From IMG/VR virus record IMGVR_UViG_2681813004_000010: 18,165 nucleotides of DNA. One strand, given 5' to 3'. Position 1 is the stretch's first letter, and every line of letters starts with the position of its first letter. Made by a program: the position numbers and the translations under genes. Of this stretch, positions 1 through 16,415 are shown piece after piece. The notes beneath the pieces were generated by a model. The model was given only the letters and a program-made list of their open reading frames with translations, was not told the origin of the DNA and did no database searches. This stretch comes from a virus (Duplodnaviria; Heunggongvirae; Uroviricota; Caudoviricetes).

Positions 1-2948
<2,948 letters not shown>

Positions 2949-4941: not shown

Positions 4942-5073
4942 TTGCTGGTTTTTACACTTAATCTTTTGATAATAAAGAATAAGTTTATCTGGCGCTTTCA
5001 CTGGATTTTCCTCGTTATCTGTGTGTTGCAATCATCTCTGTATTGCAGCTTGTATTGCTTTTTGGGGCTAAAA

Positions 5074-6309
5074 ATGGCTGGTGAGAACAAACTGAGCGAC
5101 AAAGCACTTAAAGGATATCTGGGGAAACCCAGAGAAAAGCAGATCACCATTGCTGATGGAAAGGGGCTTTCTATTCGTGTGAGTACCAAGGGGGCTGTGA
5201 GCTTTGTTTTCTTCTACAGGTTAGCAGGTGGCCGGGCTGCTCCGGTCTGGCTAACGTTGGGTAAATATCCTGATATGTCACTCAAACAGGCAAGGGAAAA
5301 GCGCGACGAGTGCCGTGGTTGGTTGGCTGACAAACGTGATCCGCGTATCCAGATTAAGATTCAGGCTGAAGAACGCTTAAAGCCGGTCACAGTGGAGGAT
5401 GCACTAAATTACTGGTATGAAAATTACTGTAAGGTGCGTCGTAAAACTCATGCTGTAACGCTTGGCAGATTTCGAAAGCATATCTTTCCCTATATCGGTC
5501 ATTTGCCCGTAAATGACACTCACCTATATGAATGGCTGGACTGTTTTGACCGAATTAAACGTAATGCACCAGTTATGGCGGCGTATGTTTTTTCTGACAC
5601 TAAATTAGCTCTTCGTTTTTGTCGGGTACGCCAGTACGCGACGTGTGATGCTTTAAAGGATTTGCGCATGAGTGATGTGGGGCAGATTGCAGGTAAGCGG
5701 GATCGGGTTCTGGATGAAGCCGAACTGGGCCAGCTCTGGAAGGCAATTTTTGTCGAGCCTGATTTAAAACTAATGTCTGAATACACGCGAAAAATGTTTG
5801 TGCTTTGTACAGTATTTGGATGTCGAATGAGTGAAGCCCGATTATCAGAATGGAGCGAATGGGATCTCGAAAGTTGGGTTTGGACTGTACCAAAAGAACA
5901 CTCAAAAACCGGTGTTGAAATCGTCAGACCAGTACCTGAAATTCTACGACAGTGGGTAACGGATGTTCACGAAGAGACAAAACATACTGGTTATGTGCTG
6001 GGAAGTCTGCGAATTAGAGAAAGCGTAAGCAAGATTGGGGGGAAAATCGGTAAACGTTTGGGCCATGAAAAACAATGGTCACTACACGACCTTAGAAGAA
6101 CGCTATCTACTCATCTAAGTGATCTCGGTGTTGAATTTTATGTAGTAGAACAACTGTTAGGCCATGCGCTACCTGGCGTGGCAGGTGTTTACAACCGGAG
6201 TAAGTTTATGGCTAAAAAACTGGATGCTCTGGAACTCTGGACTACATATCTCAATAGCATCGCAGGTGCTGATTCAAAAGTGACAATCCTCAAACAAAAG
6301 GCTGGTTAA
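5074..6309 (+). CDS. int: tyrosine site-specific integrase, P4-type
   Basis: N-terminus (GKGLSIRVSTKGAVSFVFFYRLAGG…LTLGKYPDMSLKQAREKRDE) looks like the arm-binding domain of P4-like integrases. C-terminal catalytic region has …WSLHDLRRTLSTHL… and …LLGHALPGVAGVYNR (H-x-x-R and catalytic Tyr). The track start at 4942 is an extension; the ATG at 5074 is taken as the start by homology. Confidence 0.9.
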   Translation: MAGENKLSDKALKGYLGKPREKQITIADGKGLSIRVSTKGAVSFVFFYRLAGGRAAPVWLTLGKYPDMSLKQAREKRDECRGWLADKRDPRIQIKIQAEERLKPVTVEDALNYWYENYCKVRRKTHAVTLGRFRKHIFPYIGHLPVNDTHLYEWLDCFDRIKRNAPVMAAYVFSDTKLALRFCRVRQYATCDALKDLRMSDVGQIAGKRDRVLDEAELGQLWKAIFVEPDLKLMSEYTRKMFVLCTVFGCRMSEARLSEWSEWDLESWVWTVPKEHSKTGVEIVRPVPEILRQWVTDVHEETKHTGYVLGSLRIRESVSKIGGKIGKRLGHEKQWSLHDLRRTLSTHLSDLGVEFYVVEQLLGHALPGVAGVYNRSKFMAKKLDALELWTTYLNSIAGADSKVTILKQKAG

Positions 6310-6310
6310 C

Positions 6311-6541
6311 ATGAAAAAAATGGCAATTGTTGATAAAAAGGGTCTGGAGTACATTCCTAACATCGATCGTATGATCCGTGAGAAAGAATGTCGGGAGCTA
6401 ACCACTCTTGCGAACAGCACACGCTGGAAGCTGGAGAAGGAAGGAAAATTTCCTAAGCGGATCAAGATTGGTTCCACTGCTGTTGCATATCGTCTTTCAG
6501 AAGTGCAGGCATGGATTCGAGGTGAGTGGATTGAGAAATAA
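6311..6541 (+). CDS. alpA: AlpA-family HTH regulator / excisionase-like protein
   Basis: 76 aa, …ECRELTTLANSTRWKLEKEGKFPKRIKIGSTAVAYRLSEVQAWI…, the typical AlpA (prophage CP4-57 regulator) pattern. Lies immediately downstream of int, overlapping its stop. Confidence 0.8.
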   Translation: MKKMAIVDKKGLEYIPNIDRMIREKECRELTTLANSTRWKLEKEGKFPKRIKIGSTAVAYRLSEVQAWIRGEWIEK

Positions 6542-6555
6542 TATTTGGAGAATCT

Positions 6556-7473
6556 ATGAGTAGAATGATTAATACCTTGTGCCCTTATAGCCTTATCCCA
6601 TTAAATCAAATAGAACATAATGGAGAACATGTTTTATTAGCTGGATTAGGAGCTCCGGAAAGTTTTACTGTGAATGTTTCAAAAGAAGAAAATACACGAA
6701 TTAACGATTTGTTGGATGAACCATTCTTAGGAATGGAAATAATAAAATTACTCTCGTCTATTTCGGGTCTTCAATCAAGGAGTGGTGAAGTGAAGCCATT
6801 TTTTACTGGAATTACTGAGGGTGGAGATGCGGTGCATGTTAGGATGTCTCCTGGCGAAGTGACATTGAAAGTTAAAAGTCCAGTAGTGAAGGATAAAAAT
6901 AATAATATTGTTGCAGTAACTGGTTACGAAAAGGAGGTACAAGAAACTTTGTTATCAATCACAAAAAAATATGAAGCCAAGGGGTTTTCTGTAATTACTT
7001 CCGCTCCTATAAATCGAGAGGCTGAGATCAAGCTTAACTTCAATTTGGATATTGAATTATTAAATTATCAATATTTAAAGATGGCCTATCTTACAATGGT
7101 CTACGTATTTGGTGATCGCGGGATTAAGTGTCCGGCTGCGAATGAAATTAGAAAAATAATTCTGAATAAATCACCCCTGCCTTCAACTTTAAAAGGTGTT
7201 CGTTCTCTATCATGGGATGTCAATACTTTACCATTACTGCCAAATGTTGATACCCACAAACACATTGTTGCAAGTTTTAATATTCATGGGGAAGTAGTAT
7301 GTGCAGTGTCACTTTTTGGTGTATTTAATAAAGTATTTCTCATTGAAAATGAATTGGTGGATAAGGATAATGTTTTTGGTGAGATATATGAAGTCGACTA
7401 TAAAACAAGAAAAATCAATAGAACGGATATTGTTCAGCGCATTAATGAGGTTACAAAAAACGTACAGTTTTAA
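6556..7473 (+). CDS. hypothetical protein, AT-rich cargo gene (305 aa), function unknown
   Basis: Long ORF with a good SD (GGAGAA 5 nt upstream) and markedly lower GC than its neighbours. No family recognised by eye; N-terminus has C-x-Y … EH-x-GEH … GLG, faintly HNH-like, but I cannot confirm it. Followed by a hairpin/T-run. Confidence 0.6.
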   Translation: MSRMINTLCPYSLIPLNQIEHNGEHVLLAGLGAPESFTVNVSKEENTRINDLLDEPFLGMEIIKLLSSISGLQSRSGEVKPFFTGITEGGDAVHVRMSPGEVTLKVKSPVVKDKNNNIVAVTGYEKEVQETLLSITKKYEAKGFSVITSAPINREAEIKLNFNLDIELLNYQYLKMAYLTMVYVFGDRGIKCPAANEIRKIILNKSPLPSTLKGVRSLSWDVNTLPLLPNVDTHKHIVASFNIHGEVVCAVSLFGVFNKVFLIENELVDKDNVFGEIYEVDYKTRKINRTDIVQRINEVTKNVQF

Positions 7474-7490
7474 ATGTTAACTTAAAATCA

Positions 7491-7531
7491 ACTGATTTGA
7501 GAGTTTACTCAAATCAGTAACGATATTTTTT
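7491..7531 (+). terminator. stem-loop (ACTGATTTGAG / CTCAAATCAGT, 6-nt loop) followed by T6 run
   Basis: Perfect 11-bp inverted repeat at 7491-7501 and 7508-7518, 18 nt after the cargo stop; T-run at 7526-7531, slightly displaced from the stem, so not a textbook intrinsic terminator. Confidence 0.45.
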
Positions 7532-7635
7532 GTCAGGGTGGGAAATTAAACAAATAGTTCTCATATAGAGGTATGCACAGTATGTTGTAGAAGGTGTTAT
7601 GCGCCGGAGTACCCTACACTCTACGGCGCTGGTGG

Positions 7636-7815
7636 CTATTCCTGTTCTTTGGCCTTGCGGCGCTGGCGGTACTCAACTTCTCGTTTTAATGCTGCAGTGA
7701 CAAATTGTCCTGTACTTTCGCCAGGCATTTTTACTGCTTCAACATTGTCCATAACCTCATGCGGAACCCTTGCCGCAACGGTTTGTGATTTTGCGTTTAC
7801 TGCTTTTGTCGCCAT
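7636..7815 (-). CDS. small ribbon-helix-helix (CopG/Arc-like) regulator, putative island repressor
   Basis: Minus-strand ORF …MATKAVNAKSQTVAARVPHEVMDNVEAVKMPGESTGQFVTAALKREVEYRQRRKAKEQE has a beta-strand / helix / helix pattern typical of RHH proteins. Start chosen at the ATG with a GAGGG SD about 9 nt upstream; the track start at 7824 is three codons longer. Divergent from the replication operon. The overlapping plus-strand ORF 7649-7903 was rejected. Confidence 0.5.
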   Translation of the reverse strand: MATKAVNAKSQTVAARVPHEVMDNVEAVKMPGESTGQFVTAALKREVEYRQRRKAKEQE

Positions 7816-7866
7816 GTGGTGCATCCCTCAAAAAAAAACAAATGCAGTATGCAGGAAAAAAAATAA

Positions 7867-7918
7867 GTGTTCAACACTTGAAGTGTTCAACACCTTTGGT
7901 TAAATTGGTGTTCAACAC
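7867..7918. promoter_or_regulatory. three operator-like repeats GTGTTCAACAC in the divergent control region
   Basis: Exact 11-mers at 7867-7877, 7883-7893 and 7908-7918; the 11-mer is a near-palindrome (GTGTT-C-AACAC). Located between the minus-strand RHH gene and the plus-strand operon starting at 8016. Confidence 0.5.
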
Positions 7919-8015
7919 CTTGTTGATGCAATGTGCTTAAACGACGAAACCCGGCTGTGCGCTCACACTAACCGGGCTTCTAACCACCAACGATAGCAAC
8001 AGTATCGAGGTAGCT

Positions 8016-8219
8016 ATGAGAAATCATACCACACACCCGCAAGGGCGGGACCCGCACAACCTGAATAAATACATCTGGCGTTTTATCGCCCTGAGTACGG
8101 CACAACCGCGCGTGATTACCATCGAGGCCACCAGCGAACAGGAAGCCCGCCAGCAATCCCCAACTGGCTGCGTGATGATATTCGCCGCCCGTATTCGTCA
8201 GGAGGTGTGCCATGAATGA
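8016..8219 (+). CDS. hypothetical small protein (67 aa)
   Basis: ORF with GAGGT SD 6 nt upstream; first gene of a translationally coupled operon leading to the primase. No family assigned. Confidence 0.45.
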   Translation: MRNHTTHPQGRDPHNLNKYIWRFIALSTAQPRVITIEATSEQEARQQSPTGCVMIFAARIRQEVCHE

Positions 8220-10557: not shown

Positions 10558-10780
10558 CTGTTCACCACTGTTCACCCTGTCATAAATATCTTTTATATCA
10601 GTATATTATAGGGTGAACAGTTATTTATGAACTGTTCACCAAACTATTCACTGTTCACCTTTTTGATTGTTTATTGAGCTTCAAGGGTGAACAGTGGTGA
10701 ACAGTTGGTGAATAGTTTTTGTGAAACTGTTCACCCATTAACATTATGAATTAAAAGAGAAAATATCAAAAGGTGAACAG
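10558..10780. repeat. iteron array / candidate replication origin (9-mer CTGTTCACC and complement GGTGAACAG)
   Basis: Perfect forward copies at 10558, 10568, 10632, 10651 and 10727; reverse copies at 10612, 10686, 10696 and 10772; plus degenerate copies (CTATTCAC, GGTGAATAG, GGTGAAGG). Embedded in AT-rich DNA directly after the primase gene. Confidence 0.7.
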
Positions 10781-11077: not shown

Positions 11078-11605
11078 CGGCGCAAATATCAGTTTACGGG
11101 CGGTTGGTGGACGACCCGCAGACAAAACAGACCAGCAAGGGCACCCCCATGACGCTGGCGCGTATGGCGGTATCACTGCCTTGCAGTCAGTCGGATGACG
11201 GTCAGGCGACGATGTGGTTATCTGTCCTGGCGTTTGGCAGACAAGCCGACGCGCTGGCAAAGCATCACAAATGCGAACTCCTGAGCGTGGCGGGTAACAT
11301 GCAGATGAGCCAGTGGACTGGACAGAACGGCGAAACGCGGCAGGGCTGGCAGGTTATCGCAGACAGCGTAATCAGTGCGCGATCGGTGCGACCGGGCGGC
11401 AAAACAGAACGGCGAAACGCGGCAGGGCTGGCAGGTTATCGCAGACAGCGTAATCAGTGCGCGATCGGTGCGACCGGGCGGCAAAAAAGGCCAACAGGGG
11501 CAGGCTACTGACGCACTGAACAGAGCAAAACAACAGGCAGATCAGCAAGGAAGCCAGCCACCAGTGGGAGATAATGAGCAATGGGGAGATGATATCCCAT
11601 TTTAA
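11074..11605 (+). pseudogene. ssb: single-stranded DNA-binding protein (SSB), frameshifted by an internal 82-bp tandem duplication
   Basis: N-terminal OB-fold-like sequence MTAQISVYGRLVDDPQTKQTSKGTPMTLARMAVSL…WLSVLAFGRQADALAKHH…. The canonical SSB C-terminal tail …QPPVGDNEQWGDDIPF is present but in the +1 frame (track ORF 11375-11605). Removing one 82-bp unit restores a single ~150-aa SSB. Confidence 0.7.
11322..11485. repeat. perfect tandem duplication, 2 x 82 bp
   Basis: Unit acagaacggcgaaacgcggcagggctggcaggttatcgcagacagcgtaatcagtgcgcgatcggtgcgaccgggcggcaaa occurs at 11322-11403 and again at 11404-11485. 82 is not a multiple of 3. Confidence 0.9.
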
Positions 11606-13854: not shown

Positions 13855-14400
13855 ATGGAAGCCAACAAAAAGCAGCTGGCTGACATTTTCGGTGCGAGTA
13901 TCCGTACCATTCAGAACTGGCAGGAGCAGGGAATGCCCGTTCTGCGAGGCGGTGGCAAGGGTAATGAGGTGCTTTATGACTCTGCCGCCGTCATAAAATG
14001 GTATGCCGAAAGGGATGCTGAAATTGAGAACGAAAAGCTGCGCCGGGAAGTTGAAGAACTGCGGCAGGCCAGCGAGACAGATCTCCAGCCAGGGACTATT
14101 GAGTACGAACGCCATCGACTTACGCGTGCGCAGGCCGACGCACAGGAGCTGAAAAATGCCAGAGACTCCGCTGAAGTGGTGGAAACCGCATTCTGTACTT
14201 TCGTGCTGTCGCGGATCGCAGGTGAAATTGCCAGTATTCTCGACGGGATCCCCCTGTCGGTGCAGCGGCGTTTTCCGGAACTGGAAAACCGACATGTTGA
14301 TTTCCTGAAACGGGATATCATCAAAGCCATGAACAAAGCAGCCGCGCTGGATGAACTGATATCGGGGTTGCTGAGTGAATATATCGAACAGTCAGGTTAA
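13855..14400 (+). CDS. Nu1: terminase small subunit Nu1
   Basis: 181 aa, MEANKKQLADIFGASIRTIQNWQEQGMPVLRGGGKGNEVLYDSAAVIKWYAERD…, near-identical to lambda Nu1 as I recall it. 26-nt overlap with A as in lambda. Confidence 0.92.
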   Translation: MEANKKQLADIFGASIRTIQNWQEQGMPVLRGGGKGNEVLYDSAAVIKWYAERDAEIENEKLRREVEELRQASETDLQPGTIEYERHRLTRAQADAQELKNARDSAEVVETAFCTFVLSRIAGEIASILDGIPLSVQRRFPELENRHVDFLKRDIIKAMNKAAALDELISGLLSEYIEQSG

Positions 14401-16114
14401 CAGGCTGCGGCATTTTGTCCGCGCCGGGCTTCGCTCACTGTTCAGGCCGGAGCCACAGACTGCCGTTGAATGGGCGGATGCTAATTACTATCTCCCGAAA
14501 GAATCCGCATACCAGGAAGGGTGCTGGGAAACACTGCCCTTTCAGCGGGCCATCATGAATGCGATGGGCAGCGACTACATCCGTGAGGTGAATGTGGTGA
14601 AGTCTGCCCGTGTCGGTTATTCCAAAATGCTGCTGGGTGTTTATGCCTACTTCATAGAGCATAAGCAACGCAACACACTTATCTGGTTGCCGACGGATGG
14701 TGATGCCGAGAACTTCATGAAAACTCACGTTGAGCCAACCATCCGTGATATTCCGTCGCTGCTGGCGCTGGCTCCGTGGTATGGCAAAAAGCACCGGGAT
14801 AACACGCTCACTATGAAGCGTTTCACCAATGGTCGTGGCTTCTGGTGCCTGGGCGGTAAAGCGGCAAAAAACTACCGTGAAAAGTCGGTGGATGTGGCGG
14901 GTTATGATGAACTTGCTGCCTTTGATGAGGATATTGAACAGGAAGGCTCTCCGACGTTCCTGGGCGATAAGCGTATTGAAGGCTCGGTCTGGCCAAAGTC
15001 CATCCGTGGCTCCACGCCCAAAGTGAGAGGCACCTGTCAGATTGAGCGTGCAGCCAGTGAATCCCCGCATTTTATGCGTTTTCATGTTGCCTGCCCGCAC
15101 TGCGGGGAGGAGCAGTACCTTAAATTTGGCGATAAAGAGACGCCGTTTGGCCTCAAATGGACGCCGGATGACCCCTCCAGCGTGTTTTATCTCTGTGAGC
15201 ATAATGCCTGCGTCATCCGTCAGCAGGAGCTGGACTTTACTGATGCCCGTTATATCTGCGAAAAGACCGGGATCTGGACCCGTGATGGCATTCTCTGGTT
15301 TTCGTCATCCGGTGAAGAGATTGAACCGCCTGACAGTGTGACCTTTCACATCTGGACGGCGTACAGCCCGTTCACCACCTGGGTGCAGATTGTCAAAGAC
15401 TGGATGAAGACGAAAGGGGATACGGGAAAACGTAAAACCTTCGTGAACACCACGCTCGGTGAGACGTGGGAAGCGAAAATCGGCGAACGTCCGGATGCTG
15501 AAGTGATGGCAGAGCGGAAAGAGTATTATTCAGCGCCCGTTCCTGATCGTGTGGCTTACCTGACCGCCGGTATCGACTCCCAGCTGGACCGCTACGAAAT
15601 GCGCGTATGGGGATGGGGGCCGGGTGAGGAAAGCTGGCTGATTGACCGGCAGATTATTATGGGCCGCCACGACGATGAACAGACGCTGCTGCGTGTGGAT
15701 GAGGCCATCAATAAAACCTATACCCGCCGGAATGGTGCAGAAATGTCGGTATCCCGTATCTGCTGGGATACTGGCGGGATTGACCCGACCATTGTGTATG
15801 AACGCTCGAAAAAACATGGGCTGTTCCGGGTGATCCCCATTAAAGGGGCATCCGTCTACGGAAAGCCGGTGGCCAGCATGCCACGTAAGCGAAACAAAAA
15901 CGGGGTTTACCTTACCGAAATCGGTACGGATACCGCGAAAGAGCAGATTTATAACCGCTTCACACTGACGCCGGAAGGGGATGAACCGCTTCCCGGTGCC
16001 GTTCACTTCCCGAATAACCCGGATATTTTTGATCTGACCGAAGCGCAGCAGCTGACGGCTGAAGAGCAGGTCGAAAAATGGGTGGATGGCAGGAAAAAAA
16101 GCGGTGTCTTATAA
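14375..16114 (+). pseudogene. A: terminase large subunit gpA, copy 2, truncated after codon ~575 (fused to E 3' sequence, ends …GRKK-SGVL-stop)
   Basis: MNISNSQVNRLRHFVRAGLRSLF… is collinear with lambda gpA through …EQVEKWVDGRKK, then reads 4 codons into E-derived sequence and stops. Copy 1 shows the normal continuation (…ILWDSKKRRNEALDCF…GEDE), so ~66 C-terminal codons are missing here. Confidence 0.85.
15134..16100 (+). repeat. direct repeat copy 2 (A gene segment), partner at 1-967
   Basis: See copy 1. The repeat ends at the A7 run (16094-16100), where copy 2 diverges into E sequence. Confidence 0.95.
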
Positions 16115-16415
16115 GGGAATGTATGGCGATGTGGCCATCGTCGTGTATTCCGGACAGTACGTGGAAAACGGCGTCAAAAAGAACTTCCTGCCGGACAACA
16201 CGATGGTGCTGGGGAACACTCAGGCACGCGGTCTGCGTACCTATGGCTGTATTCAGGATGCGGACGCACAGCGCGAAGGCATTAACGCCTCTGCCCGTTA
16301 CCCGAAAAACTGGGTGACCACCGGCGATCCGGCGCGTGAGTTCACCATGATTCAGTCAGCACCGCTGATGCTGCTGGCTGATCCTGATGAGTTCGTGTCC
16401 GTTCAACTGGCGTAA
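16098..16415 (+). pseudogene. E: major capsid protein gpE, 3' fragment (about codons 237-341)
   Basis: KAVSYKGMYGDVAIVVYSGQYVENGVKKNFLPDNTMVLGNTQARGLRTYGCIQDADAQREGINASARYPKNWVTTGDPAREFTMIQSAPLMLLADPDEFVSVQLA matches the lambda gpE C-terminus. It is joined in a different frame to A codon ~575 and has no own start except a fortuitous ATG at 16086. Confidence 0.85.

Follow-up and report, generated by a model that had tools for sequence, protein, structure and literature searches.

The window analysed here is a stretch of 18,165 nucleotides (nt) of caudovirus DNA, IMG/VR record IMGVR_UViG_2681813004_000010, and all coordinates are window positions unless a locus label is given. The gene under study is an open reading frame (ORF) on the + strand, with its ATG at 6556 and its TAA at 7471-7473, which encodes a protein of 305 amino acids (aa). 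It lies directly behind the integrase gene (int) and the regulator gene alpA of a helper-embedded phage-inducible chromosomal island (HE-PICI). Judging from its relatives and from a structure model, the protein is best described as an HNH effector whose zinc site is degenerate and whose specificity domain is undescribed, and on balance the ORF probably encodes a partner-less nuclease for defence or conflict against phages or other mobile elements. The features of the locus are as follows.

5039-5059, + strand: doubled arm-type motif TGTATTGCAGCTTGTATTGCT, which resembles the HE-PICI attP motif tgTGTATTGCantgTGTATTGCa (motif scan)
5074-6309, + strand: int, tyrosine integrase of the HE-PICI clade and capE site group (Pfam Arm-DNA-bind_3 and Phage_integrase; RefSeq annotation of strain 980-2)
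6311-6541, + strand: alpA, AlpA-family regulator/excisionase, last gene of the integration zone (Pfam Phage_AlpA, E 2.9e-15)
6529-8015, no strand: variable 'dynamic (Bro) zone' slot, from alpA to the Icd-like gene (similarity break and seven alleles)
6547-6550, + strand: Shine-Dalgarno sequence GGAG (sequence read)
6556-7473, + strand: 305-aa ORF, predicted to be of HNH_5 type, RefSeq WP_141073898.1, 'hypothetical protein' (family search, model, and ratio of non-synonymous to synonymous substitution rates, dN/dS)
6568-6735, + strand: predicted N-terminal ββα-Me (His-Me finger) domain, residues ~5-60
6580-6582, 6625-6630, 6691-6693 and 6715-6717, + strand: codons of the predicted catalytic domain for C9, E24-H25, N46 and D54, respectively
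6787-7470, + strand: C-terminal region, residues ~78-305
7491-7518, no strand: AT-rich hairpin, probable bidirectional terminator (z = -2.2)
7636-7824, - strand: YlcI/YnfO (DUF3950), small convergent gene (PHROG 949, E 2e-22; genome annotations)

A preliminary description of this DNA, made from the sequence alone, had proposed a 305-aa gene at 6556-7473 with a good Shine-Dalgarno sequence, a terminator-like hairpin of its own and a low GC content, placed after int-alpA and before a convergent repressor gene. Most of this is borne out. The reading frame is real, as indicated by its start and stop codons and a dN/dS of 0.11-0.22, the GGAG ends 5 nt before the ATG, and the order of the genes is as proposed. 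The GC content of the ORF is 0.34 (0.27 at third codon positions, GC3), lower than in int (0.45), alpA (0.44) and the window as a whole (0.51). In the hairpin, a loop of 6 nt closes a stem of 11 bp, of which only 4 are G-C pairs, and the structure is more stable than shuffled sequences; a T6 run follows on the + strand 7 nt beyond it, and a terminator scanner calls it on the - strand. It is probably a modest bidirectional terminator that separates the convergent genes. The identity of the convergent gene as a repressor did not stand, since the gene is YlcI/YnfO; the repressor-like PHROG match ('transcriptional repressor') belongs to the next gene on the + strand, the Icd-like gene at 8016-8219.

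Between the stop codon of alpA (6539-6541) and the start of the ORF lies a gap of 14 nt. No sigma-70-like site was predicted by a promoter scan of this interval, and therefore the ORF is likely transcribed together with alpA. The start of int at 5074 is that of RefSeq; the mechanical ORF begins earlier, at a TTG at 4942.

The protein family and its predicted domains

Direct searches with the 305-aa protein gave no match in Pfam, PADLOC 2.0, PHROGs, NCBIfam or the PDB sequences. Hits to PAP2 (E 0.2) and an acyltransferase (E 0.8) were dismissed as noise, and an NCBIfam lead, 'HlpB', was dropped because it is merely a Bacillus HNH-like protein. A word-indexed search of 5.8 billion proteins found 6 clusters only; with an exhaustive profile search, the number of cluster representatives at E<=1e-3 was 264. 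These relatives are nearly all stand-alone proteins of ~300 aa, and no fusion architectures were observed among them. A profile search of genome contigs with a shallow alignment found no related loci.

For the conservation figures, 110 full-length members were aligned and each was scanned against Pfam. PF14279 (HNH_5) is matched by 65 of the 110 members, with a best E of 2.5e-19. The window protein and its closest relatives have no Pfam match even at E<=10, and thus none that reaches the gathering score. When the profile of the window clade was compared with 12 PF14279-positive members using hhalign, a probability of 98% and an E of 2.6e-13 were obtained over 284 columns, indicating that the homology is full-length and extends beyond a motif.

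In distant members, the motif reads CxxC...EHIxPxALGG...VCxxCNSxLG..VD, and in the window clade it reads CPY...L...EHVLLAGLGAP..F.V.AS..EN..N.LxDEP. Across the 110 sequences, C9 is conserved in 95%, E24 in 95%, H25 in 98%, G32 in 99%, N46 in 98% and D54 in 96%. N46 aligns with the Asn of the CxxCN of the PF14279-positive members, so that both a metal-ligand Asn in a helix (N46) and an acidic residue beside the catalytic His (E24) are present. The zinc cysteines are far less constant: all four (CCCC) are found in 17 of the 110 members, and the first alone (C---) in 76. The window protein keeps C9 only and is missing three of the four HNH_5 zinc cysteines, and it therefore does not have the Cys4 arrangement (CxxC...CxxC).

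With an input of 6 sequences, modelling had given a result too poor to use (pLDDT 56). AlphaFold2 with the alignment of 110 sequences gave a model with a pLDDT of 96.4 and a pTM of 0.91. In this model, strands at residues 21-25 and 38-42 and a helix at residues 43-58 form a ββα-Me finger. H25 closes the first strand (β1), as the catalytic His does in the β-β-α-metal topology, and N46 lies in the helix. From the sequences and the model, the HNH domain looks catalytically competent without the usual zinc site.

The preliminary description had noted a weak, loosely HNH-like stretch near the N-terminus, and this hint turns out to be right at the level of the family, given the 65 PF14279 matches, the hhalign result and the modelled ββα-Me finger. 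Its motif holds in part: the His of 'GEH' is H25, the putative catalytic His, and the His of 'IEH', H21, is not. The profile searches and structure prediction that it had called for place the protein in neither a housekeeping nor a structural family and point to the HNH_5 type.

The family can thus be described from its sequences as an uncharacterised one with an HNH_5 nuclease domain. In the part of the survey by Jablonska et al. 2017 (PMC5714182) that concerns it, PF14279 belongs to the His-Me finger superfamily, where HNH_5 is found in group 1 and also as a 'group 8', which is uncharacterised and comprises 158 sequences from bacteria and one from an archaeon. The present family resembles HNH_5 in its ββα-Me topology and its EH...N...D set, and most members match the Pfam model. 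It differs in that the window clade is without three of the zinc cysteines and falls below the Pfam threshold, and in that the C-terminal ~230 aa occur in no described family.

Residues 82-160 are modelled as a β-rich subdomain with a helix, and residues 166-302 as long helices that pack onto a six-stranded sheet. Several residues of this region are conserved throughout the 110 sequences, namely G77 (91%), K175 (99%), G186 (95%), H236 (98%) and F254 (95%). In the Pfam scan of the 110 members, no family covers residues ~78-305, and Foldseek found no match at E<=1e-3 among the solved folds of the PDB or the viral folds of BFVD. Weak Hsp33, hot-dog and YajQ-like resemblances were noted for this part of the protein. 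On the evidence of the model, the C-terminal domain of ~230 aa is one without a structural counterpart in PDB or BFVD. Bro-N, KilA, KilA-C, ANT and helix-turn-helix (HTH) domains were not found by Pfam in the protein or its 110 relatives, which sets the ORF apart from the Bro-N network.

Other HNH-containing systems can be compared as well. Septu PtuB, CBASS Cap5 (HNH-SAVED), McrA and GmrSD differ from the ORF in domain order and in the C-terminal fold, and the locus has no PtuA ATPase, CD-NTase, SAVED, DUF262 or DUF1524. In particular, the SAVED sensor and adjacent CD-NTase of a CBASS Cap5-type system were not found at the ORF locus. Weak matches to the PADLOC model of the PtuB HNH were observed in a few distant members.

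The carrier element and its variable slot

DNA of the ORF is present at 99.9-100% identity in 6 complete Escherichia coli genomes. The gene order in strains 980-2 and MB06231 is int, alpA, the ORF, YlcI, an Icd-like gene, DUF4222, primase, single-stranded-DNA-binding protein (SSB), major capsid, decoration protein, HTH, terS and DUF2971. In both strains, the island splits the λ gpE-like major capsid gene of a DLP12/λ-type prophage into two halves. In the window, the λ gpE-like frame is broken off after residue 81, at ~4911, and the arm-type motif has one match with 3 mismatches at 5039-5059, where 0 are expected (200 shuffles). The attP motif that it resembles, tgTGTATTGCantgTGTATTGCa, has been described for HE-PICIs (PMC10111431). 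The int, alpA and D5-type primase genes are co-oriented and inserted in a prophage late gene, which is the arrangement that marks an HE-PICI. By these sequence features, the carrier is an HE-PICI of site group E:Phage_cap_E, following the definition and site groups of Tommasini, Mageeney and Williams 2023 (PMC10111431). The satellite setting given in the preliminary description can thus be made more exact: the carrier is a helper-embedded and not a generic PICI, and belongs to a prophage-embedded satellite type that is already known (PMC10111431). A scan of the window with Rfam at gathering thresholds did not find a P4 CI/C4-like immunity RNA.

Four zones have been described in HE-PICIs: Integration (int, alpA), dynamic 'Bro', Replication and Late (PMC10111431). 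Among the genes of the dynamic zone the ORF comes first, and this position is variable. The int-alpA pair is present at >=96.5% identity in 175 E. coli genomes, and the similarity among the 175 islands ends at the 3' end of alpA, at ~6529. Only 6 of the islands carry the ORF, and 169 carry other cargo. Eleven other islands were sampled, and alleles were then counted with queries spanning the junction from alpA to the cargo. At least seven alleles were found behind the near-identical int-alpA, and the following seven together account for 164 of the 175 islands.

178-aa gene on the - strand (locus L016 5667-6203): 67 genomes, the commonest allele
TIR-domain protein: 37 genomes
DUF2971 protein with a SWIM gene: 34 genomes
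putAbiC protein: 11 genomes
305-aa ORF: 6 genomes
467-aa gene on the + strand (locus L019 5608-7011): 5 genomes
265-aa gene on the + strand (locus L017 5585-6382): 4 genomes

For the TIR allele, matches were obtained to the PADLOC candidate PDC-S35 (E 6.9e-67) and to the TIR domain of CAP12/Pycsar, and the putAbiC allele matches PF16872. No Pfam or PADLOC match was found for the 178-aa, 467-aa and 265-aa occupants, which are further candidate cargo genes. According to the Penadés laboratory, immune systems are encoded at the 5' and 3' ends of PICIs (PMC11364771). Since the slot is variable among conserved elements, has TIR/PDC-S35 and putAbiC as alternative occupants and lies where PICI immune genes have been reported, it behaves as a defence-type hotspot. 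The proposal of a variable slot in the preliminary description is thereby upheld by the comparison of islands; neither a conserved slot nor homology to a housekeeping or structural family, both of which it had named among the signs against an anti-phage or abortive-infection gene, was found.

Similar hotspots are known from PICIs, P4 and P2 (Fillol-Salom et al. 2022, as cited in PMC11364771; Rousset et al. 2022, PMC9122126), and the HE-PICI 'dynamic/Bro zone' is comparable (PMC10111431), in that variable cargo is flanked by conserved satellite genes and defence candidates occur as alternative alleles. The ORF differs in not having been described previously, in having no Bro-network domain and in appearing to have co-diverged with the flanking int-alpA, unlike typical cargo.

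The YlcI/YnfO gene also accompanies other cargo alleles. It is thus part of the backbone of the dynamic zone, and it was rejected as a specific partner of the ORF for the same reason. A paralogue of this satellite gene is present in the helper-type prophage, upstream of nohD/terS (locus L036 2584-2778, - strand).

Relatives of the ORF at >=45% identity all lie directly after int-alpA in HE-PICIs. Besides E. coli, they were found in Enterobacter (74% identity), in Klebsiella and metagenomes (50-55%) and on a Rahnella megaplasmid (45%). The replication and capsid modules of their HE-PICIs vary, and for some the insertion site is a ClpP-capsid fusion gene and not gpE; the window integrase is 53% identical to the integrase of ClpP-site satellites. 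Within a site group, identities are 91-93% for Int, 91-95% for AlpA and 73-82% for the ORF, and between groups they are 51-53%, 62-64% and 49-55%, respectively. The within-group synonymous divergence (dS) of the ORF, 0.68-1.07, is similar to that of int, 0.72-1.49. The ORF is under purifying selection, with a dN/dS of 0.11-0.22 compared with 0.03-0.07 for int, and its low GC content is kept (0.34-0.35) in all five orthologues examined. This divergence in step with int-alpA and the constant GC content indicate that the gene is not a recent foreign arrival and that low GC is a stable property of it. The gene appears to be an old, selected and faster-evolving companion of the integrase clade that has since been replaced in most lineages.

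More distant relatives occur outside satellites. In metagenomic Tn7-like cargo, a relative starts 8 nt after a GmrSD_N/DUF262 gene, next to a DNA methylase and an EcoRII-C gene. The upstream gene at this locus (L034 6224-8936) encodes a 589-aa GmrSD_N (DUF262)/SLFN_AlbA_2 protein without the usual DUF1524 nuclease domain, and the two genes may form a split GmrSD-like pair in which the HNH family supplies the nuclease. A Syntrophothermus relative overlaps a truncated SNF2 gene and is surrounded by four PIN/MazE pairs, AbiEii and SIR2, and relatives from Methylotenera and a Nostoc plasmid are in integrative-element or plasmid settings. Relatives were also found in cyanobacteria and Firmicutes, and one relative lies beside a PIN pair. 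A 30%-identical relative, P0006 (locus L013 2-5576), overlaps the end of an ORF of >1545 aa, which has no Pfam or PADLOC match, and the two may form a two-gene system. In addition, solitary copies are known: the Citrobacter farmeri relative is beside a benzoate/catechol operon and the Paraburkholderia relative is chromosomal. In the sixteen contexts examined, no conserved neighbour and no conserved antitoxin gene were observed, and a tblastn search of 50,697 phage records found zero relatives. The role in defence suggested in the preliminary description is consistent with the contexts in Tn7 cargo by restriction genes, in a toxin-antitoxin island and in integrative elements.

Possible functions of the ORF

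The catalytic set is conserved, the two-part architecture is fixed, no partner or immunity gene is conserved alongside the family, the slot is shared with TIR and Abi genes, and relatives occur in defence-island contexts; together, these observations argue for a self-contained conflict endonuclease. In the proposed mechanism, the N-terminal ~60 residues would form an HNH_5-type ββα-metal site without structural Cys4 zinc, in which E24/H25 would serve as metal ligand and general base, and N46, and possibly D54, as metal ligands. The family-specific C-terminal domain of ~230 residues would set the cleavage target or the timing of cleavage. The gene would be one of several interchangeable cassettes of the dynamic zone, probably transcribed with alpA, and as an anti-phage defence it would protect the satellite, the helper prophage and the host. 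Because self-DNA must be spared, control would be needed, and two modes can be envisaged. The C-terminal domain may read a DNA feature that the host lacks, in a modification- or sequence-dependent manner as in Type IV systems, which is hinted at by the DUF262 neighbour in the Tn7-like cargo. Alternatively, it may hold the nuclease off until a phage factor frees it, in a manner resembling abortive infection. We infer the nuclease activity, the DNA substrate, the defence role and the mode of control from sequences and models.

Several points weigh against a defence nuclease. The assignment of the window protein to HNH is transitive, via its relatives, and the loss of the zinc site could impair or alter activity. 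The apparent co-divergence with int-alpA is unusual for defence cargo with fast turnover and could mean a satellite-specific function. Likely co-transcription with alpA would link expression to the induction of the satellite and not to constitutive surveillance. Some relatives, those of Citrobacter farmeri and Paraburkholderia, are in plain chromosomal settings. Also, no PADLOC 2.0 model matches the window protein, its close relatives or the proteins P0003, P0005 and P0006.

Some of these points would fit a nuclease of the satellite life cycle that is expressed with alpA at induction and cuts or nicks helper, competitor or host DNA, favouring replication or packaging of the satellite. The nuclease NixI of PLE acts on the phage ICP1, and a satellite nuclease could follow a comparable logic; the use of nuclease chemistry in satellite-helper conflict is the likeness between NixI and this role for the ORF. 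The invariable position of the >=45% relatives after int-alpA, from E. coli, Enterobacter, Klebsiella, Rahnella and metagenomes and despite differing replication and capsid modules, speaks for such interference, as do a divergence that parallels Int and AlpA at a similar dS and the 14-nt gap to alpA in which no promoter was predicted. The ORF also shares with P4 eta its place just after an alpA-type regulator; in P4, the alpA homologue is followed by eta/kil (PMC10111431), and the translation of eta/kil is coupled to that of this homologue. However, no sequence or fold relationship to NixI or Eta/Kil was detected, and of the 175 E. coli islands that share this int-alpA, 169 lack the gene and carry unrelated cargo instead, partly of defence type. 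Since these islands do without it, the gene is dispensable for the satellite cycle. Members of the family also exist outside satellites, in Citrobacter, Tn7 cargo, cyanobacteria and Firmicutes, and helper interference, although the foremost rival, is accordingly regarded as unlikely. A similarly low probability is given to the specific case in which the gene is not ordinary exchangeable defence cargo but an old companion of an integrase clade specialised in insertion into prophage head genes, encoding a zinc-less HNH nuclease with a new C-terminal fold that is switched on with alpA at induction and acts on the DNA of helper or rival phages. If true, this would be a new mechanism of satellite-helper conflict peculiar to helper-embedded satellites.

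A function in toxicity, addiction or host killing, either kil-like or with an antitoxin elsewhere, would stabilise the satellite or kill upon induction without phage specificity. A free-standing nuclease without an immunity gene would indeed be toxic if unregulated, one relative lies among PIN/MazE pairs and another beside a PIN pair, and in the Rahnella satellite, as in one other allele of the slot, the convergent gene encodes a HicB-family antitoxin. But the family has no conserved small partner gene, YlcI/YnfO also occurs with other cargo alleles and in the prophage itself, solitary chromosomal copies exist, and the gene is intact in all six complete genomes; the chance of this explanation is put at the low end. 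It is very unlikely that the ORF encodes an inactive HNH-derived DNA-binding or regulatory 'Bro zone' protein. The Cys4 zinc site is gone in the window clade, and the dynamic zone of Gram-negative PICIs (GN-PICIs) mostly holds DNA-binding or regulatory proteins with nuclease-related domains (PMC10111431). Yet the E-H...N...D set is 95-98% conserved in the 110 diverse members, including the 76 without the zinc site, and a dead enzyme is not expected when the catalytic set is conserved in zinc-less members as well; moreover, no Bro-N, KilA, ANT or HTH match speaks for a regulator. The least probable explanation, to which hardly any weight is given, is a selfish free-standing HNH homing endonuclease inserted 3' of alpA that spreads by cutting empty sites. 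An HNH domain followed by a putative DNA-binding part of ~230 aa resembles the layout of such enzymes, and the gene is present in some islands and absent from others, with an abrupt break at the 3' end of alpA. Where the ORF is missing, however, the site holds other full-length genes and is not empty, and occurrence in phages, introns or inteins with an empty-site allele was not found, in line with the zero relatives among the phage records. In addition, the gene appears to have co-diverged with int-alpA without a near-identical sweep, and its relatives lie in unrelated, non-homologous contexts.

Literature searches with the protein accessions found no paper. Both this kind of element and the concept of defence hotspots in PICIs are already known, and it is the gene family itself that is new to the literature and to the models of the defence catalogue. 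If the partner-less nuclease proves protective, it would be a compact one-gene defence system of ~300 aa, with an HNH domain lacking the zinc site and a specificity domain without a solved counterpart. The dynamic zone of HE-PICIs would then be a defence hotspot with at least three more uncharacterised cargo genes. Its apparent co-divergence with an integrase clade that targets prophage capsid genes also makes the ORF a tractable case for asking whether such cargo serves the host, the helper or the satellite.

Other features of the satellite

At the right end of the satellite (13855-16415), a Nu1-like terS continues into a partial copy of λ gpA that comprises its first 579 codons. The segment 15134-16100 matches window 1-967, the gpA of the prophage itself, at 99.9% identity, and at ~16100 the gpA copy is fused to the last third of gpE (~100 codons). 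This gpA-gpE junction was found at >=80% coverage in 0 complete E. coli genomes, and capsid and terminase fragments are adjacent in three. An intact attR that restores the late gene was not found in the window, and strains 980-2 and MB06231 have the canonical junction. The window represents either a derivative that has undergone deletion or rearrangement and is probably immobile, or a late-gene capture, or an assembly artefact. The ORF at 14435-15202 (- strand) was considered as 3' DUF2971 cargo and was rejected, as it is antisense within the gpA copy and has no domain match.

A perfect 82-bp tandem duplication (2.0 copies) lies at 11322-11486, inside the SSB gene of the satellite, and is a single copy in strain 980-2. 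Because of this duplication, the C-terminus of SSB is frame-shifted in the window (145 aa, compared with 149 aa in 980-2). Three 11-bp iterons, GGTGAACAGTT, are located at 10686-10717 in low-GC DNA just 3' of the primase gene; GN-PICI replication origins have been reported at the position just after the primase gene (PMC10111431).

A second variable cargo position is found at the 3' end of the satellites, between terS and attR. Depending on the island, it holds DUF2971, unknowns of 402 aa or 464 aa, an AAA_15/AAA_21 ATPase or an FRG-domain protein. The cargo lies at 19876-20634 in locus L001, 17887-19095 in L002, 17343-18737 in L005, 17232-18683 in L007 and 17243-18175 in L009.

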